Of a stretch of 64,000 nt of DNA, positions 8,812-56,814 are shown in pieces (the first letter of the stretch is position 1; every line of letters begins with the position of its first letter). The notes under the pieces are model-generated. The model did not search any database, had not been told where the DNA came from, and worked only from the letters and a program-made list of their open reading frames with translations. Both the position numbers and the translations under genes were made by a program. The DNA comes from an uncultured Gammaproteobacteria bacterium (GTDB taxonomy: Bacteria > Patescibacteriota > Microgenomatia > CAZXEC01): the NCBI GenBank assembly GCA_964639595.1, contig CAZXEC010000001.1:88111-152110 (forward strand), in the 5' to 3' direction.

Positions 8812-9846
8812 ATGTTTACCTTATCGCGCCTACCGCTGCTAGTTCTTATTGTTTGTACCATTGTATTGATCATCTATTCTTTTGTAGGCGTTGGTTCGTC
8901 AGTTAAAATTATTCCTACATCGCAGGGGGTTGCTATGATTTTTCAAATCTATCCTGCTGATAAAGGTGTCTATGAAAAGTTAGGCCAACAGCTAGATGTC
9001 ACAGGATTATTTGATCAACCCATCACCTTATCTTTAGATGCCCAAAGTAGATTTTTAGTAAAAGATTGGCCAGGACTCACTTTCAATATTAGTTATTCTG
9101 ACAGTGTAGTTAATTTCGGCAGTCAATCAATAGTTGATAGACTAAAAGATTATTTCAAGACTGACAAAACTGAATGGAAAATCTTACAATTTTTGCCAGA
9201 AGATACTGTTTTATGGGCCAAAATGGCCAGCCATGATTTCTGGCAATTTTGGCCGGTCAGCTGGCCCAATGATACAAAAGACTTTTTAGAGGAATTTTTA
9301 ACTGGTGATGCAATTTTGGCGATAGTTCCTGATGGTGGTAATCTGGGGGTAGTTGCAATCAGTCGAGATTTGCCAGATCCAGAACAAACGATGAAGAAAT
9401 TCCAACAGTTGTCTAAGCCCATGATGGCTGTTTTTGCAGAAGATACCATAGAGGACATTCAGGTTTGGTCGCAAGTTTCTACCATGCCTGAAAATTCTTG
9501 GTGGCTGTTTTATTACCAAGACACTTGGGTATTATCATCATCGGCTAACTTAGCCAGACAAGAGGCAGCTCTTGTTAAAAGTAACGGTAGTAGTATTTTA
9601 CAAAACCTTGGTTTTATAACAGTTTCCCGTGATGCTGGCAAATTCTGGCAGAGGCAGATTTATTGGCGGGGCCCCAAAGAGAATATCAAATTGCCACAAA
9701 AAATTAACCTGGCCGCCTATGGTACAATCAATTTAGGACAAAAAGATTTAGTTTTTGAAAGTTTGATTAACAAGATCGCAGCTATAATGATTGTACAGTC
9801 GGATTACATTATCAAAGGCAAGGTGTTGTTAGATGACAGCAAGTAA
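8812..9846 (+). CDS. Hypothetical membrane-anchored protein (N-terminal TM helix)
   Basis: 344 aa. Hydrophobic N-terminus LPLLVLIVCTIVLIIYSFVGV. No recognisable catalytic motif. Confidence 0.4.
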   Translation: MFTLSRLPLLVLIVCTIVLIIYSFVGVGSSVKIIPTSQGVAMIFQIYPADKGVYEKLGQQLDVTGLFDQPITLSLDAQSRFLVKDWPGLTFNISYSDSVVNFGSQSIVDRLKDYFKTDKTEWKILQFLPEDTVLWAKMASHDFWQFWPVSWPNDTKDFLEEFLTGDAILAIVPDGGNLGVVAISRDLPDPEQTMKKFQQLSKPMMAVFAEDTIEDIQVWSQVSTMPENSWWLFYYQDTWVLSSSANLARQEAALVKSNGSSILQNLGFITVSRDAGKFWQRQIYWRGPKENIKLPQKINLAAYGTINLGQKDLVFESLINKIAAIMIVQSDYIIKGKVLLDDSK

Positions 9847-10882
9847 TCATCTTTTTTCAGAAATCACCCAACTAGAAAAAACCATTCAAAATTCGGAACT
9901 CCCGCAAAATTTGCGAGCAAAAATTAGCAATTCACTTTCAAGATTAGAAGGTGCTGCCCGCTTTGGCGGATATTTAAATGAGCATGAAAGCTTATTAAGG
10001 TATGCAGACTGGGTATTAAATCTTCCTTGGGAAAAAACTAGCGATGACATCCTAAATTTGGCGCAAGCTCGAAAAATCTTTGATAAAAACCATTACGGTC
10101 TGACCAATATTAAAGAGCGGATTTTGGAATATCTGTCAGTTCTATCATTAAAAAAAGGCCAAAATGCCGCAGTGAGAGCCCCTATTTTATGCTTGGTTGG
10201 TTTGGTTGGGACTGGCAAGACAACTTTGGCTGCTTCCATTGCCGAAGCAATGGGCAGAAAAATCGCCCGGATTCCTTTTGGTGGAATGGGAGATGCCAGG
10301 GAACTGCGAGGTCAATCAAGGACTTTGCCTGATGCAGAGCCAGGACAAATAATCAAAGCCTTAAGGCGTATTCAAGTCAAAAACCCAGTTATCTTGCTTG
10401 ATGAGATTGATCGAGTGGCCGAGTCAACCAGATCGGATTTGATGGGAGTGCTGGTAGAACTTTTAGATCCGGAGCAGAACATGGCATTTGTTGACCACTA
10501 TATTGATTATCCATTTGATTTGTCACAAGTATTATTTATCGCCACAGCCAATAATACTACTAATATTTCTACTGCGGTTTTGGATAGACTAGAACCAATT
10601 CAAATGCCTTCTTATACTGATGAGGAAAAAATTATGATTGCCGGTGCTTACATCTTACCCAAGGCTATAGCAGAATCAGGGTTGGCGCCGAATGTTGTGA
10701 TAGTTGATGGTGATGTTTGGCCAAAGATTGTCAGACCGCTGGGGTTTGATGCCGGTATCAGAACCTTAGAAAGAACAGTGAGCGGTATTTGCAGAAAGGT
10801 TGCTAAACAAATTGTAGAAGGCAAAGGCAAGCAATTTCATATCACACTTGCCAATGTCAACGAATTTCTGCCTGTTTGGTAA
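9833..10882 (+). CDS. Lon-like AAA+ ATPase module without an N-terminal LAN domain or a C-terminal S16 protease domain
   Basis: RYADWVLNLPWEKTSDD...HYGL..IKERILEYLSV pre-AAA helix. Walker A GLVGTGKTT. Walker B ILLDEIDR. LLDPEQN sensor region. ICRKVAKQIVEGK end of the small alpha-domain. Ends 10 aa later, where the Lon protease domain would start. Confidence 0.8.
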   Translation: MTASNHLFSEITQLEKTIQNSELPQNLRAKISNSLSRLEGAARFGGYLNEHESLLRYADWVLNLPWEKTSDDILNLAQARKIFDKNHYGLTNIKERILEYLSVLSLKKGQNAAVRAPILCLVGLVGTGKTTLAASIAEAMGRKIARIPFGGMGDARELRGQSRTLPDAEPGQIIKALRRIQVKNPVILLDEIDRVAESTRSDLMGVLVELLDPEQNMAFVDHYIDYPFDLSQVLFIATANNTTNISTAVLDRLEPIQMPSYTDEEKIMIAGAYILPKAIAESGLAPNVVIVDGDVWPKIVRPLGFDAGIRTLERTVSGICRKVAKQIVEGKGKQFHITLANVNEFLPVW

Positions 10883-10887
10883 TTTTT

Positions 10888-11526
10888 ATGACACAACAAG
10901 AGAAAAAACAGCAACTACAAGACTTGGCCAAAAAAATTCACAATTGTCGCAGATGCCCTTTGTACAAAGAAGCCAAGCAGGCAGTCCCAGGAGAAGGTGA
11001 TCCGGATAGCAAAGTAATGTTTGTTGGTGAAGCGCCTGGTTATCACGAGGATATGCAAGGCCGGCCATTTGTGGGGCCAGCTGGACAGCTGTTGGGCAAG
11101 TTGATTACCTTGGCTGGTCTTTCGCGCAGAGAGGTATTTATTGCCAATGTTATAAAACACCGGCCGCCCAATAATCGTGATCCTCGCGATGAAGAAATTT
11201 TAGCATGTGCTGATTGGCTAAATATGCAGATTAACATTATTGATCCCAAAATTATTGTTACATTGGGCCGGTTTTCTATGTCAAAATTTGTTCAAGGACA
11301 GTCAATATCCAGGGTTCATGGACTAGTCTTTAGGGCAGATGATAGAATTATTGTACCAATGTATCATCCGGCGGCCGCTCTGCGCTCAACATTAGTCATG
11401 CAGCAAATCAGACAAGATTTTGTCAATTTGCAAAATCTTATCAGTAGAGAGAAAGATCAGAAAATAAATCACAGTCAAAGTCAAGTAGATAAAAAGCTTG
11501 ATCATGAACAGCAAAGATTATTGTAA
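10888..11526 (+). CDS. Family-4 uracil-DNA glycosylase (Fe-S type) with a polar C-terminal tail
   Basis: CRRCPLYKEAKQAVPGEGDPDSKVMFVGEAPGYHED...GRPFVGPAGQLL motifs are typical of UDG family 4. The ATG at 10888 is preferred over the TTG at 10876. Confidence 0.85.
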   Translation: MTQQEKKQQLQDLAKKIHNCRRCPLYKEAKQAVPGEGDPDSKVMFVGEAPGYHEDMQGRPFVGPAGQLLGKLITLAGLSRREVFIANVIKHRPPNNRDPRDEEILACADWLNMQINIIDPKIIVTLGRFSMSKFVQGQSISRVHGLVFRADDRIIVPMYHPAAALRSTLVMQQIRQDFVNLQNLISREKDQKINHSQSQVDKKLDHEQQRLL

Positions 11527-18683: not shown

Positions 18684-20987
18684 GTGGCGCAAGCCGTGGC
18701 AGTTTGTAACTTATGTGATAGACTTACAATGATGCTCACTTTATTTTCCAAAATTAAATCACTCTTGCCTAACAGGCCATCACCGCAGGTTCATTATCTA
18801 TTGGCTGTGGTGATTGGTAAAACTGAAATTGAGGTGGGTGTTTGGTATTTGTCGTCAGCTGGAGTAGAAATTATAGCTGTTGCTGCCCAACCAATAGAAC
18901 AAGGGTTGTCGTTGGAAGAGATCATTGCTCAAGCAACAGATCAAGCGGAGATTCGAGCCAGACTGCAAGCCAGTCATGTAGTTTTTGGCTTACCACAAGA
19001 TTGGTTTGTCCAGGATAAAATTTCCCCAACTAAATTGGATGAGCTAAAACAGGCCTCGCAACATTTAGACTTGATACCGATTGCCTATGTCTCTTGCCCA
19101 CACGCCTTAGTACATCTTATCAAAACTCAAGAGAAAACACCGCCATCGGCGATTTTATTGGGATGGGATGGCGATCTGTTGACTATCAACATATCCAGGA
19201 CTGGTAGAATTGAATTTTCTCAAGATGTACCATATTATCACAACCTTGAAGAAACACTCAAAAATACTCTTTTCTCTATATCAAGATCTATTCCAGGAGC
19301 AGTCCCCTTACCAGCCAGGATTATTCTATGGGGTAAGAGTTGGTCTGGGGAAGACAGAGAGCTTTTGACCTCTGCCGGCTGGTTATCACAATTACCGTTT
19401 TTGCACCTGCCCAGGGTTGAGATACTGCCTGGTGATAGTCGGCTAAAAGCTGTTGCTCTGGCAGGTGGTGTGGATCAGGCGCAGGAGTTGCAACTGCCAA
19501 ATCTACCACTGTCAGTAAGAATCAAAGAAGAATCTGTCAAAATCGTATCCTCTCCGGAAAAGCAGTCAGTAGGATCAGAGATGCCAGAGGAGGATAATTT
19601 TGGTTTCGTGGTGGATTTTGATATTGCCAAAACTATAACTCAAGAAACTCCCCTGGTAGCAGTACCTGCAAATAAGGTAGCTTTCAAAAATAGCGATAAT
19701 TTAGGCTTTTCGCCGCCTCCCAAGATAAGCAATAAACTGTTTGGCTGGTCGCAAATTGCTCTACCGAATATTAATTGGCCTTCGGTTGCGTTTCCCAGTC
19801 ATTTATCCAGATTGGCAGTTTTTGCAGGGGCGGCAATAGTTTTAGTTGGTGGAATTATCTTTGGCCTGGTTTGGTTAATTCCTTCTGCTAGGGTAGTTGT
19901 TTACGGAGAAGAAAAAGTAATCCAAAAAGAGGCAGAAGTTATTGCAGACCCGAGCTCGCCATCGCTTAATGTAGAAATCAAGGTAATACCAGCTGCTGTT
20001 CTTGAAGTTGGCCATGAAGGGTCAGCAAAAGGGGTAGTTGAGGGAACAAAGACTATCGGCGACAAGTCCCGGGGAGAAGTAGTTATTTATAATAAAACTA
20101 CCACCAAGAAAACTTTCTCTACTGGCGCTGCCATCATATCTGTCCAAGGGTTAAAGTTCTTATTGGAAAGTGATGTGACTGTTGCTTCCCAATCTGCTAC
20201 CACCAATGAGCAAACTCAAGCTATAACTCTTACTCCTGGTACTGCCAAAGTGGCGGTGATTGCCGAAAAAATAGGCTCTGACTATAACCTGGCAGCTAGT
20301 CCGGACAAGTCAAATTTTACCATCGCTGGGTTTGCAGAGGGCCAATTTAATGCTAGAAACTTTCAAGCATTTGCTGGAGGCTCATCCAGGGAAATAAGAA
20401 TGGTAACTGAAAATGATCAAAAAAACTTGACAGAACAGTTGGCCAAACAATTGACTTCTCAAGTAAAAGAGAAACTAATTCTCCAAGTGCCTGCCGATAA
20501 ACAATTGCTAGAGCAGGCCATCAGACAAGAAGTTACCAAAAAAGTTTTTGACAAAAAAATAGGTGACGAGGCGCGAGAGTTAACTTTAACGATGAATGTT
20601 ATTGCCAAAGCCACCATCTATTCTGAAAACGATCTCAAGGAATTACTGACACGTTATGTCACAGCCCTTGTTCCGGAAAATTATCAACAATTGGAAATGT
20701 TCACTACTACAGAAGCTCAAGTTACCAAAGTTGATAATAACGGCAAACTGTTTTTTACAGGTAAGTTAAACGCTATTCTTTTGCCTAAAATGCCCACATC
20801 AGAAATAGCCCAGAGCCTGGCCGGGAAATCCATTAATGATGCTCAAGAATACTTAAAAACGCTTGCTAATTCTGTCGGATTTCAGGTACAAATTTCTCCC
20901 AGCTGGTTAAAATTTTTGCCAGATCCCCTAAAAACCATGCCGCGTAATCCACAAAGGATATCAGTTGAGGTAACTCACAAAAACTAA
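18684..20987 (+). CDS. Hypothetical large bitopic membrane protein (cytoplasmic N-terminal domain, one TM, extracytoplasmic C-terminal domain)
   Basis: 767 aa. Central TM LAVFAGAAIVLVGGIIFGLVWLIP. The N-terminal region resembles an actin-like FtsA/PilM fold (this is inference). The GTG start at 18684 is uncertain; the ATGATG at 18729 is an alternative. Confidence 0.4.
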   Translation: MAQAVAVCNLCDRLTMMLTLFSKIKSLLPNRPSPQVHYLLAVVIGKTEIEVGVWYLSSAGVEIIAVAAQPIEQGLSLEEIIAQATDQAEIRARLQASHVVFGLPQDWFVQDKISPTKLDELKQASQHLDLIPIAYVSCPHALVHLIKTQEKTPPSAILLGWDGDLLTINISRTGRIEFSQDVPYYHNLEETLKNTLFSISRSIPGAVPLPARIILWGKSWSGEDRELLTSAGWLSQLPFLHLPRVEILPGDSRLKAVALAGGVDQAQELQLPNLPLSVRIKEESVKIVSSPEKQSVGSEMPEEDNFGFVVDFDIAKTITQETPLVAVPANKVAFKNSDNLGFSPPPKISNKLFGWSQIALPNINWPSVAFPSHLSRLAVFAGAAIVLVGGIIFGLVWLIPSARVVVYGEEKVIQKEAEVIADPSSPSLNVEIKVIPAAVLEVGHEGSAKGVVEGTKTIGDKSRGEVVIYNKTTTKKTFSTGAAIISVQGLKFLLESDVTVASQSATTNEQTQAITLTPGTAKVAVIAEKIGSDYNLAASPDKSNFTIAGFAEGQFNARNFQAFAGGSSREIRMVTENDQKNLTEQLAKQLTSQVKEKLILQVPADKQLLEQAIRQEVTKKVFDKKIGDEARELTLTMNVIAKATIYSENDLKELLTRYVTALVPENYQQLEMFTTTEAQVTKVDNNGKLFFTGKLNAILLPKMPTSEIAQSLAGKSINDAQEYLKTLANSVGFQVQISPSWLKFLPDPLKTMPRNPQRISVEVTHKN

Positions 20988-54490: not shown

Positions 54491-55114
54491 TTATCCTCTT
54501 TTAATCTTTTTCCAAAATCCGTCTGGAACGACCACTAATTTTAGAAAACTTAACCTTACCAGGAGACTATCAGCTGTAACTTCAAATTCTTGAGCCAGAT
54601 CGGGAAAAGTATCTGGAAGATCAAAAACCGAACAGGGGGTTGGAATACGATTTCGGCTCATAAATTGATCCCATCTTTCCTTCAAGACTTTTTCCGGCAT
54701 TAATACCATACTAGCAAAAGTTCTGGCTTGTCTTTCAATATAGTCGAATAACTTATTATCTAATTTCTCCTGCCATGTTATATATGGTTCTAAGCCTTTT
54801 GGGCCATCCTTGCTGTACCATTCTTTGTGAAGATATAAATGACCGATTTCCTCAGCAATAGTAAATCTTATTCGTTCCGGTTGTTTGGTATACATTCCTT
54901 CGTCTATCACGATAGAATCGAAGTTTTGGTTAATAAATGCATTTACTCCAAAATTTTTGATCAATCCACTAATTAAGATAATCCTAAGTCCTAATTTTAA
55001 TTCAGCTATATCCTCAATAGGTACTGGAAGAGTTAAAGAAGGATGACAATTTTCTAAAAATAAATTCGCTTGATTCTTAACGTCCTGAATATTTATCTCG
55101 TTGGGATTTTTCAT
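54491..55114 (-). CDS. ImmA/IrrE-family (M78-like) metallopeptidase-domain protein, second gene of the HTH-peptidase pair
   Basis: RFTIAEEIGHLYLH aligns to the ImmA/IrrE HEXXH helix, but the first His is replaced by Glu. Directly abuts the upstream HTH gene. Confidence 0.65.
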   Translation of the reverse strand: MKNPNEINIQDVKNQANLFLENCHPSLTLPVPIEDIAELKLGLRIILISGLIKNFGVNAFINQNFDSIVIDEGMYTKQPERIRFTIAEEIGHLYLHKEWYSKDGPKGLEPYITWQEKLDNKLFDYIERQARTFASMVLMPEKVLKERWDQFMSRNRIPTPCSVFDLPDTFPDLAQEFEVTADSLLVRLSFLKLVVVPDGFWKKIKRG

Positions 55115-55501
55115 TCATTTGTCTAGTAGAGTTATTAACTGCTCCAGTTTTTTTCTATCCAGTTTTTTATTTCTCATGGTTCTGAAGAATGCTGGTAGCA
55201 GATCATTTATATTTTCTTGATTTTTTATATCTGTGGGGATTTGTCCTTTGGCTGTATGTGCCAAATCATGAAATTTAATCCATTCTTCAGTGTCACGTTT
55301 TATTTTCAGAGCAGTTGCATATCCTGCTAATTTTTCATCATCTAGCGTAGGCGGCAAGATATTTCTTTCAAGTCTACTGATATTTCCTGGATCATAACCA
55401 TATCTTTCGCAAAACGCACGAAGGGAAAATCCAAGTTCTATTCTCTTTACTCTGAAGAAATCACCGAAATTTTGATTAGAAGCATCTTGAATTTTATTCA
55501 T
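55115..55501 (-). CDS. XRE-family helix-turn-helix transcriptional regulator
   Basis: FRVKRIELGFSLRAFCERYGYDPGNISRLERN, a Cro/C1-type HTH. ATG at 55501 chosen. The track ORF extends to a GTG at 55525, which lies inside a palindrome. Confidence 0.7.
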   Translation of the reverse strand: MNKIQDASNQNFGDFFRVKRIELGFSLRAFCERYGYDPGNISRLERNILPPTLDDEKLAGYATALKIKRDTEEWIKFHDLAHTAKGQIPTDIKNQENINDLLPAFFRTMRNKKLDRKKLEQLITLLDK

Positions 55502-55502
55502 A

Positions 55503-55556
55503 GTGTTGTAATAATAATACAACACTATTCTAGTATAGACTTTGACAGGTTGTCAA
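55503..55556. promoter_or_regulatory. Two operator-like inverted repeats in the divergent HTH/HNH promoter region
   Basis: GTGTTGTA-ATAATAA-TACAACAC (55503-55525). TTGACA-GGT-TGTCAA (55542-55556), the latter carrying a -35-like TTGACA. Confidence 0.55.
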
Positions 55557-55569
55557 GTTTTGAAAGGAG

Positions 55570-55812
55570 ATGAAGGTAAAAAATATAATGAATTATAAAT
55601 GTAGATATTGTGGATGGACAGGTCCAAGAAAAGATTTCGAGATTGACCATGTAATCCCAATTGTTAGGTCAATTTTACAGAATATCTTACAGCCAGCGCT
55701 AGATTTAATTTGTTCTGGTTGCAACAGACAAAAAGGCAGAATGACAGGAGCAGGATATATGGAGATTGCTAAATTCATTCGAAGCAAATTTAGGACCAAT
55801 TATCTAAAATGA
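55570..55812 (+). CDS. Small standalone HNH endonuclease (80 aa)
   Basis: CRYCGW...FEIDHVIP...N...CSGCNRQKG, the HNH beta-beta-alpha-Me with two CxxC pairs. Confidence 0.75.
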   Translation: MKVKNIMNYKCRYCGWTGPRKDFEIDHVIPIVRSILQNILQPALDLICSGCNRQKGRMTGAGYMEIAKFIRSKFRTNYLK

Positions 55813-55828
55813 AAAGATTGAATTTTTG

Positions 55829-55878
55829 AAAAGTTCTTTGCCTCGCCTTTGGCGAGGGGCGTGTTAAATTTTTGCGTG
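55829..55878. repeat. Copy B of the roughly 50-bp imperfect direct repeat; contains the CCTCGCC-TTT-GGCGAGG hairpin
   Basis: AAAAGTTCTTTG CCTCGCCTTTGGCGAGG GGCGTGTTAAATTTTTGCGTG. Confidence 0.5.
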
Positions 55879-55909
55879 TCAAATAATTGGCCTACCGAAT
55901 TTTATCAAA

Positions 55910-55943
55910 TTAACTAATCTCACCTGTTAACTAATCTCACCTG
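55910..55943. repeat. Perfect tandem duplication of the 17-mer TTAACTAATCTCACCTG
   Basis: 55910-55926 and 55927-55943 are identical. Confidence 0.8.
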
Positions 55944-55968
55944 GGAAGTGGATTAGCTTGACACCGAT

Positions 55969-56814
55969 TTAAGAAAATTTCAAAATTTGATCAAGTTTGT
56001 TGTTAGGAAATAAGTCTTTTGGATAAATAGAGATAACATTTAACCTTTGTTGTTGCCAGAACTTTTTCTTTCTTGCAATCAAAGCGTCGTATGCTTTAAC
56101 CTCTCCTTTTAATCCAAAAAATTCAATAAGACAGCCATTAACCTTAAAATCGGCAGTCATATTATCCTTACCGTAAGGAATATTTCTATCGTGGAGAATT
56201 TTTCTAGCATAAAACCAATCATCAATAATCTTCTCAGTTAATGAGTCGCATTTGTGTCCATCATTAGCAATATACTTTTTGGCATACTTAACCGGGTTAG
56301 GATTAAAACCTGCAGCTATGATAGCAGCATTCCAGCTACCAAAGCGAAGGCGTGCTGCTTTGTGTTGGCTAAATTCTCTTTTAAGAGGAATCCTTCCAGT
56401 CTTTTTATAGAACGATTGAATTTGCTCAATAATTATTTCTTTTACTATAATTTGACCAGCATTTTTACACGCCTTTGAGCAATACTTCTCTCGACCTTTA
56501 AATTCTTTATTGCAATAACCACACATTTTAATAACAGCATGCCTTTTGGGAAATCTTGAGTTATTTATTGTCGCTGCGCAAGAGCGAGAGCAATAGTAAG
56601 ATCTGGCATTCTTGAGTTCCTTCAATTGCCGTTTGAAGATCTTGCCACAAGAAGGATTAGTGCAGATAAGCGCTTTTTGTTTATTTCTTGCCTTGCTTAT
56701 ACATTCTAGAGAGCAATATATATTCCAGTCAAACTTTTTACCTTCATTGATTCTCCCTTGACTACGAAGAATAATTTTTTTACATCGATCACATTTAACA
56801 GGCAAAAGTTCCAT
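55969..56814 (-). CDS. Multi-zinc-ribbon protein with a C-terminal Vsr/DUF559-like PD-(D/E)xK endonuclease domain
   Basis: Six or more CxxC pairs in the N-terminal half. C-terminus DSLTEKIIDDWF...ADFKVNGCLIEFFGLKG...YDALIARKKKFW...LNVISIY matches the Vsr/DUF559 core. Start codon is 2 nt from the tRNA-like 3' end. Confidence 0.6.
   Translation of the reverse strand: MELLPVKCDRCKKIILRSQGRINEGKKFDWNIYCSLECISKARNKQKALICTNPSCGKIFKRQLKELKNARSYYCSRSCAATINNSRFPKRHAVIKMCGYCNKEFKGREKYCSKACKNAGQIIVKEIIIEQIQSFYKKTGRIPLKREFSQHKAARLRFGSWNAAIIAAGFNPNPVKYAKKYIANDGHKCDSLTEKIIDDWFYARKILHDRNIPYGKDNMTADFKVNGCLIEFFGLKGEVKAYDALIARKKKFWQQQRLNVISIYPKDLFPNNKLDQILKFS

Follow-up and report, generated by a model that had tools for sequence, protein, structure and literature searches.

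The window analysed here is a 64,000-nucleotide (nt) stretch of contig CAZXEC010000001.1 (assembly GCA_964639595.1, positions 88,111 to 152,110 of the forward strand), numbered from its first letter, from a bacterium titled an uncultured Gammaproteobacteria bacterium and placed by GTDB in the Microgenomatia of the Patescibacteriota. It contains a gene, here called lonAAA, that encodes a Lon-type AAA+ ATPase without a protease domain. The protein consists of an N-terminal three-helix bundle, a nucleotide-binding (NB) domain and a small helical lid, and ends in a short conserved motif. The gene, its domains and the residues discussed below are located as follows, where MtaLon is the LonA protein of Meiothermus taiwanensis and AF2 an AlphaFold2 model:

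9833..10882, + strand: coding sequence of the protease-less Lon-type AAA+ ATPase (lonAAA), 349 amino acids plus TAA stop
9833..10018, + strand: N-terminal three-helix bundle, residues 1-62 (AF2 helices; alignment to MtaLon 243-300; PMC6722904)
10058..10603, + strand: AAA+ large (NB, RecA-like) domain, residues 76-257 (Pfam, AF2, Foldseek)
10199..10222, + strand: Walker A motif GLVGTGKT, residues 123-130 (alignment)
10307..10345, + strand: remodelled pore-loop 1, RGQSRTLPDAEPG, residues 159-171, with L165 at the position of MtaLon Tyr397
10388..10411, + strand: Walker B motif VILLDEID, residues 186-193, with D190 and E191 invariant
10412..10441, + strand: pore-loop 2 region RVAESTRSDL, residues 194-203, with T199 at the position of MtaLon Trp431
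10550..10552, + strand: sensor-1 residue Asn240, invariant
10586..10588, + strand: Arg252 at the arginine-finger position in LDR-L/M-E, invariant
10619..10831, + strand: small α-helical lid (H) domain, residues 263-333 (Pfam Lon_lid, AF2)
10760-10762, + strand: sensor-2 residue Arg310, invariant, within the lid domain
10862..10879, + strand: C-terminal motif EFLPVW-COOH, consensus [ED][FY]LPx[WY] in Microgenomates homologues

A preliminary description of this DNA had outlined a Lon architecture running from the helix before the AAA+ module through its large and small subdomains. Every Lon motif that it quoted is present in the open reading frame (ORF), and the Pfam, NCBIfam, PDB and Foldseek comparisons all agree with the outline. 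Pfam matches are found for AAA (PF00004, residues 119-256, E 3e-18) and Lon_lid (PF22667, residues 281-333, E 7e-10), and the same scan gives neither LON_substr_bdg (PF02190) nor Lon_C (PF05362). TIGR00763 'lon' scores 336.7 bits, short of its threshold of 608.05, and aligns over model positions 255-571 of 795 only; NF008053 scores 268 bits where 891 are required and aligns over positions 250-581 of 784. No NCBIfam model matches the protein above its cut-off. The best sequence matches in the PDB are LonA proteins (E ~1e-79), with residues 8-333 aligned to MtaLon 243-563. The stretch shared with LonA is residues ~245-585, made up of the three-helix bundle, the NB domain of the AAA+ module and the lid. 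As it begins at about LonA residue 245, only the last three helices of the HI(CC) domain are present, and the N-terminal substrate-binding domain is lacking, as had been noted earlier.

An AF2 model built on a 61-sequence family alignment shows the three-helix bundle (residues 2-19, 25-42 and 48-62), the RecA-like NB domain and the helical lid (predicted local distance difference test score 88.9, predicted template modelling (TM) score 0.82). The bundle corresponds to the C-terminal part of the LonA HI(CC) domain, helices α8-α10 of E. coli Lon, and contains a conserved Y57-x-D-W60...L64-P-W66 motif. In Foldseek the model matches the ATPase modules of LonA and LONP1, and the best two-way match is a fragment of E. 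coli Lon, residues 235-584 (pdb 6N2I; TM-scores 0.89 on the query and 0.91 on the target, root mean squared deviation 2.2 Å). The ORF had been described as ending 10 amino acids beyond ICRKVAKQIV; the actual number is 21 residues (EGKGKQFHITLANVNEFLPVW), and the end still falls, as proposed, in the linker that joins the lid to the protease domain in LonA.

The roles of the active-site residues were assigned through alignment to LonA. The family Walker A motif is G-L-x-G-x-GKT as opposed to the GPPGxGKT of LonA. G123, G126, G128, K129 and T130 of this motif, D190 and E191 of Walker B, N240, R252 and R310 are each invariant in the 61 aligned family members. We take the equivalent residues of E. 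coli Lon to be K362, E424, N473, R484 and R542. Judged from this alignment, the apparatus for nucleotide binding and hydrolysis is intact, the predicted trans-acting arginine finger included, and the conservation of such a finger is meaningful only in an oligomer.

The pore loops are a different matter. In M. taiwanensis LonA, Tyr397 of pore-loop 1 and Trp431 of pore-loop 2 contact the substrate and both are needed for degradation (PMC8503904). Among 120 homologues of the lonAAA protein the position equivalent to Tyr397 is occupied by Arg (56), Tyr (34), His (19), Phe (7) or another residue (4: two Gln, one Leu, one Ile). Next to it, Ile has become Pro in 105 sequences, Gly has become Asp in 114 and Met has become Glu in all 120, such that the Tyr-Ile-Gly of LonA reads x-Pro-Asp in this family. 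At the position of Trp431 small residues prevail (Gly 53, Ala 37, Thr 20, Ser 7, Val 2, Asn 1) and none of the 120 is aromatic. A sister subfamily in Candidatus Dojkabacteria, described below, has mostly Phe and in a sizeable minority Glu at the Tyr397 position, and its pore-loop 2 is likewise without Trp. By alignment, then, the pore-loop-1 Tyr is no longer strictly conserved in the lonAAA family and the pore-loop-2 Trp is entirely lost.

The C-terminal residue is aromatic in 118 of the 120 homologues (Trp in 107, Tyr in 11) and lies within a near-invariant [FY]LPx[WY]-COOH motif. The Dojkabacteria subfamily ends instead in the non-aromatic LPDQGPLS. A MAFFT alignment placed the terminal Trp on the conserved Trp of the LonA 'GLAWT' motif; this requires a gap of ~23 residues and was set aside as an alignment artefact.

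The truncated form is conserved among relatives. The best 120 homologues (61-71% identity) are all 338-381 amino acids long and none has a Lon_C domain; where named, they come from Daviesbacteria, Gottesmanbacteria, Shapirobacteria and Microgenomates. In a scan that used one genome per species, at least 594 species-level genomes encode a lonAAA relative. The informative names among the best 80 genome matches (Gottesman-, Shapiro-, Ames-, Levy-, Woese-, Curtiss-, Roizman-, Davies- and Collierbacteria) all belong to Microgenomates lineages. The sister subfamily in Candidatus Dojkabacteria (WS6) is 48% identical, has the Walker A motif GLQGVGKT and is equally widespread, and all 120 of its members examined are without Lon_C. 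The ratio of non-synonymous to synonymous substitution rates (dN/dS, Nei-Gojobori) for the closest gene pairs is 0.04-0.17, which points to strong purifying selection on lonAAA. An identical protein followed by the same downstream gene is found on contigs from three independent assemblies with separate read sets.

Motifs were further compared in a sample of 150 representatives of a 50%-identity library. Canonical LonA sequences carry GPPGxGKT with RGHRRTY[IV]GxxPG, and the short proteins carry G[LVI]xGxGKT with RGxS[RK]xxPDAEPG; the split between the two is clean, and none of the sequences with the second signature has an S16 domain. The lonAAA protein shows the features of this family, namely a core of ~350 amino acids without Lon_C, the Walker A and pore-loop signatures and the [FY]LPx[WY] C-terminus, and so do its 120 closest homologues. 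Longer members (453-703 amino acids) owe their extra length to Q/P-rich low-complexity N-terminal tails. That the extensions of distant relatives are relict Lon N domains was considered and rejected, as they are of low complexity and show no Pfam match and no similarity to the LonA N region. Q/P/T-rich and probably disordered extensions occur in P0271 (residues 1-390), P0135 (1-140), P0145 (1-150) and P0141 (1-110), and that of P0271 contains near-perfect repeats of QPQQPQVQPVQFGQQ.

A full-length LonA from the candidate phyla radiation (CPR) was sought among the closest canonical LonA matches, where P0183 and P0226 do not seem to be CPR proteins, judged by sequence and context. The top-scoring library representatives P0121, P0122, P0123, P0126 and P0131 are proteins of 1000-1700 amino acids in which Lon-type AAA modules occur in tandem, two or three per protein. 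P0121 ends in Lon_C, and many of the tandem-AAA proteins have a variant pore loop, RGHNRTW[RK]xxQPG. Some of these multi-ring architectures may be gene-fusion artefacts.

The missing protease domain was sought with the protease (P) domain of E. coli Lon as query, which was validated against 1RR9. With tblastn and phmmer no S16 domain was found in any frame of the 64-kb window (best E >2), nor in an early set of related loci (best E >2), and tblastn at E<=1e-5 found none in 87 related loci (948 kb). The preliminary description had held that the protease domain is not encoded adjacently, and this stands for the window and for the 87 loci alike. Because the next gene starts 5 nt past the lonAAA stop, there is no room for a protease remnant. 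The short homologues, the dN/dS values, the absence of S16 nearby and the Dojkabacteria sister subfamily together indicate that the loss of the protease domain is ancient and fixed. On these comparisons lonAAA is an old, vertically inherited family throughout the Microgenomates with a sister subfamily in Dojkabacteria. Of the two possibilities raised at the outset, a stable truncated Lon remnant is strongly supported, since length, sequence, C-terminus and synteny are all conserved under strong purifying selection.

As far as sequence and predicted fold allow, the lonAAA protein is a stand-alone AAA+ ATPase derived from LonA which has permanently lost the LON N and S16 domains. As part of the Lon pore-pulling machinery has been lost, its job is probably something other than protein degradation. 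The protein would assemble into a ring or spiral oligomer and hydrolyse ATP. Processive translocation is unlikely: the aromatic residues that grip the substrate have not been maintained and the protein has no degradation chamber into which polypeptides could be threaded. The ATP-driven conformational cycle might instead act on client proteins or complexes by binding, holding or remodelling them, in the manner of a chaperone or remodeller, with lonAAA presumably co-expressed with the housekeeping block of pnp, rnj and ftsK. The C-terminal [FY]LPx[WY] motif probably substitutes for the lid-protease-linker packing or oligomer-stabilizing contacts of LonA, or acts as a docking tail. That lonAAA encodes a functional, stable, protease-less ATPase derived from Lon is very probable, and the specific non-degradative mechanism of chaperone or remodeller type is tentative, with slightly less than an even chance. 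A blend of the two confidences stands at roughly 0.6.

Several points weigh against this reading. Pore-loop 1 is still aromatic in about one-third of the Microgenomates members and, as Phe, in most of those from Dojkabacteria, and some ability to translocate may persist in the family. The oligomeric state and the ATPase activity are predictions only. The protease domain of LonA is a major platform for hexamerization, and a protein without it may not form a closed ring. Finally, the window shows no heat-shock element, and no CIRCE operator at up to 3 mismatches, that would link lonAAA to the stress regulon.

The closest known relatives show what has been kept and what has changed. The LonA proteins (TIGR00763, MEROPS S16A) of M. 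taiwanensis, E. coli and B. subtilis are 40-47% identical to the lonAAA protein in the region from the three-helix bundle through the NB domain to the lid, with the same fold and the same Walker A/B, sensor-1, arginine-finger and sensor-2 residues. The lonAAA protein differs from them in that the LON N domain, the coiled-coil part of HI(CC) and the Ser-Lys protease domain are missing, Walker A is GLxGxGKT, both pore loops are altered and the C-terminus is an aromatic one of its own. The 6N2I fragment of E. coli Lon, obtained by limited proteolysis, binds ADP and in the crystal is arranged as an open helical hexamer (PMC6722904). It has nearly identical domain boundaries and structure to the lonAAA protein. 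The fragment was made in the laboratory from a protease, whereas the lonAAA protein is a natural one, maintained by selection, whose pore loops are altered. LonC is a Lon-like protease without ATP-powered unfolding activity (PMC3391209) and is thus another Lon derivative in which the two activities are uncoupled. It is however the mirror image: in LonC the protease persists and the ATPase is degenerate, while in the lonAAA family it is the ATPase that persists and the protease that is missing.

The HI(CC) and AAA+ module of LonA is structurally related to ClpB (PMC6722904), and nucleotide-binding domain 2 of ClpB/Hsp104 is similarly part of a protease-free AAA+ machine of the same Hsp100-related lineage. 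ClpB has a pair of AAA+ rings together with an M domain, and its pore-loop tyrosines are conserved, whereas the lonAAA protein has one ring module and pore aromatics that are not conserved. When compared directly, the lonAAA protein has a single AAA module and scores 19.9 bits with PF07724 (AAA_2), below the cut-off of 27. Proteolytically inactive Lon that acts as a chaperone is a comparable case, as in yeast, where protease-dead Lon retains a role in promoting assembly.

An unlikely alternative is that Lon has been split, the lonAAA ATPase working with a peptidase encoded elsewhere (a stand-alone S16 or another self-compartmentalized peptidase) on which it docks through its aromatic C-terminal tail, much as the HbYX tails of proteasomal ATPases dock onto their peptidase. 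The near-invariant aromatic end, the intact ATPase site and the pore-loop-1 Tyr or Phe kept by about one-third of members would all suit such an arrangement. Split genes are usually adjacent, though, and the searches of the window and of the 87 loci returned no S16 domain; no member keeps the pore-loop-2 Trp, and most have Arg, His or Leu in place of the pore-loop-1 Tyr. One Dojkabacteria member does lie near M16 and M23 peptidase genes, but these neighbours do not seem to be conserved elsewhere, and the C-terminus of that subfamily is not aromatic. On the contig concerned (L088, 4779-10191; protein P0145), two M16 peptidase genes lie upstream of the lonAAA relative and an M23 peptidase gene starts 5 nt downstream, with a reverse-strand metallophosphoesterase gene between the M16 genes and the lonAAA relative.

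Less likely again is a nucleic-acid-directed AAA+ protein, a Lon-derived ring repurposed to act on RNA, DNA or RNA-degrading enzymes. Such a role would make sense of the conserved location of lonAAA between the genes for PNPase and RNase J, with those for UDG and FtsK nearby, and of the lost aromatic residues that grip polypeptides. The gene lies in a conserved block, pnp - lonAAA - (udg) - rnj - ftsK. Across the 87 loci, neighbours on the same strand include polynucleotide phosphorylase (PNPase) upstream in 67 and RNase J downstream in 66, as well as FtsK in 48 and a uracil-DNA glycosylase (UDG) in 24. The order pnp - lonAAA - rnj on one strand is kept in ~75% of the loci and also in a relative that is 52% identical and extended at its N-terminus, and relatives at 41-65% identity retain the block. 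The tip of pore-loop 1 is frequently Arg or His; LonA itself binds DNA, and the AAA+ clade in which it falls includes RuvB. The synteny belongs, on the other hand, to a large block of housekeeping genes that is inherited (dnaK-dnaJ-nusA-infB-rpsO-pnp...ftsK-rodZ-like), and it is lost in Dojkabacteria. A basic shift in charge, as a sign of nucleic-acid binding, is absent (family isoelectric point 6.3 against 6.7 for LonA modules), invariant acidic residues (Asp167 and Glu169) flank the pore-loop tip and the protein has no nucleic-acid-binding domain.

A particular form of this idea, and as much of a long shot, is that the RNA-turnover machinery of PNPase and RNase J, or some other non-proteolytic complex, has acquired the ring as an ATP-driven partner. 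Such a partnership would account for the conserved pnp - lonAAA - rnj operon, the lost gripping residues and the aromatic docking tail. If true, it would be the first natural Lon motor separated from proteolysis with a new class of client.

Recent decay, with the ORF as a lon broken by a frameshift or by mis-assembly, or as a piece of a pseudogene, is next to impossible: it has in its favour a superficial resemblance to a truncated lon and the name 'Lon protease' given to homologues by the Joint Genome Institute (JGI) and in one NCBI record, but it is refuted by the identical ORF in three assemblies, the hundreds of homologues that are short with the same boundaries, the low dN/dS, the conserved C-terminal motif, the next gene 5 nt past the stop and the absence of an S16 remnant or adjacent S16 ORF in the 87 loci. 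The recent split or decay of a gene that the preliminary description had entertained falls with it, and so does an error of assembly or a frameshift, which it had also named.

The protease-less Lon-derived ATPase is of interest because Lon is the textbook AAA+ unfoldase fused to its own protease. Excerpts from the review literature state that all Lons contain both ATPase and protease domains (PMC9569914). A whole bacterial lineage here keeps the Lon motor alone, with its pore loops altered and strong selection acting on it, and provides a natural experiment on the Lon ATPase without proteolysis, so far approached only via engineered mutants and fragments. A literature search for a protease-less Lon family or for Lon in CPR found nothing relevant; its coverage was incomplete and this is absence of evidence only. 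A natural, lineage-wide uncoupling of Lon motor and proteolysis, in which the pore loops are remodelled and the C-terminus carries a new motif, appears to be undescribed. It also bears on protein quality control in CPR/Patescibacteria, whose genomes are ~1 Mb.

Public records label the family 'AAA family ATPase', 'ATP-dependent Lon protease' (JGI) or 'Lon protease' (some NCBI records). Proteins mislabelled in one of these ways include P0009, P0025, P0033, P0145 and P0311; the NCBI name 'Lon protease' is that used for candidate division WS6 bacterium GW2011_GWF2_39_15. Systematic over-annotation of this kind could spread into reconstructions of CPR proteolysis based on KEGG Orthology, and metabolic reconstructions that credit Microgenomates or Dojkabacteria with Lon proteolysis from such annotation are probably wrong.

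The immediate surroundings of lonAAA in the window are:

8812-9846, + strand: 344-amino-acid ORF between pnp and lonAAA, a membrane ORF with an N-terminal hydrophobic segment
9820..9825, + strand: Shine-Dalgarno-like AAGGTG, 7 nt 5' of the lonAAA ATG, within the 3' end of the upstream ORF
10888-11526, + strand: UDG gene, family-4-type (PF03167, E 1e-35)

The lonAAA gene starts with ATG and stops with TAA at 10880-10882. The stop codon of the upstream ORF lies at 9844-9846, such that it overlaps the start of lonAAA by 14 nt. This ORF is species-specific and has no Pfam or PADLOC match; of the 87 loci it occurs only in those of the three identical assemblies, the other 84 being without it, and it was therefore rejected as a partner of lonAAA. 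The UDG gene starts at ATG 10888, 5 nt past the lonAAA stop, or at an alternative TTG at 10876 with a 7-nt overlap, in agreement with the coordinates and identity first proposed for it. Its product, a UDG-superfamily protein, has a CxxC motif near the N-terminus. As this gene lies downstream of lonAAA in only 24 of the 87 loci, the pairing is facultative and UDG is not an obligatory partner.

The genes of the window identified by Pfam are dnaK (3' part), dnaJ, lonAAA, udg, a rodZ-like helix-turn-helix gene, a sortase gene, yceG, recA and rny. For pnp the identification comes by inference from L001, a locus identical to this one. The genes nusA, infB, a DHH-family gene, rpsO, rnj, ftsK and alaS were assigned via tblastn, the L001 annotation or synteny, and rpoB/rpoC and an EF-G/EF-Tu-ribosomal cluster from ORF size and position alone. 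No terminator-like site was found from pnp to rnj in the window. PADLOC gives only weak generic AAA matches, the best being a partial one to DolB (29.8 bits), and the surroundings are housekeeping genes. Membership of a defence system, such as the Lon-like/AAA BrxL type of BREX, was rejected on these two grounds.

Many GTDB representative records with related loci (L012, L021-L024, L083 and others) are titled 'uncultured Gammaproteobacteria', 'Pseudomonadales', 'Bathyarchaeia archaeon' or 'Methanoperedens sp.'. These titles are read as placeholders or mislabels because the typical pnp-lonAAA-rnj-ftsK synteny is present. An ORF of ~720-770 amino acids lies between alaS and the sortase gene in the window (18684-20987, + strand), in L004 (18516-20675) and in L006 (18543-20774). 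The window copy has no Pfam match and its relatives have only a weak Baseplate_J match; its position next to the sortase gene is conserved across the Microgenomates. Over its whole length (1-64000) the window shows an extreme coding-strand bias, with nearly all long ORFs among ~50 plausible genes on the + strand and the only block on the - strand, a short one, at 54491-56814. An excerpt from a description of a complete Microgenomates genome reports an unusual disparity in nucleotide composition between the two DNA strands (PMC7143001).

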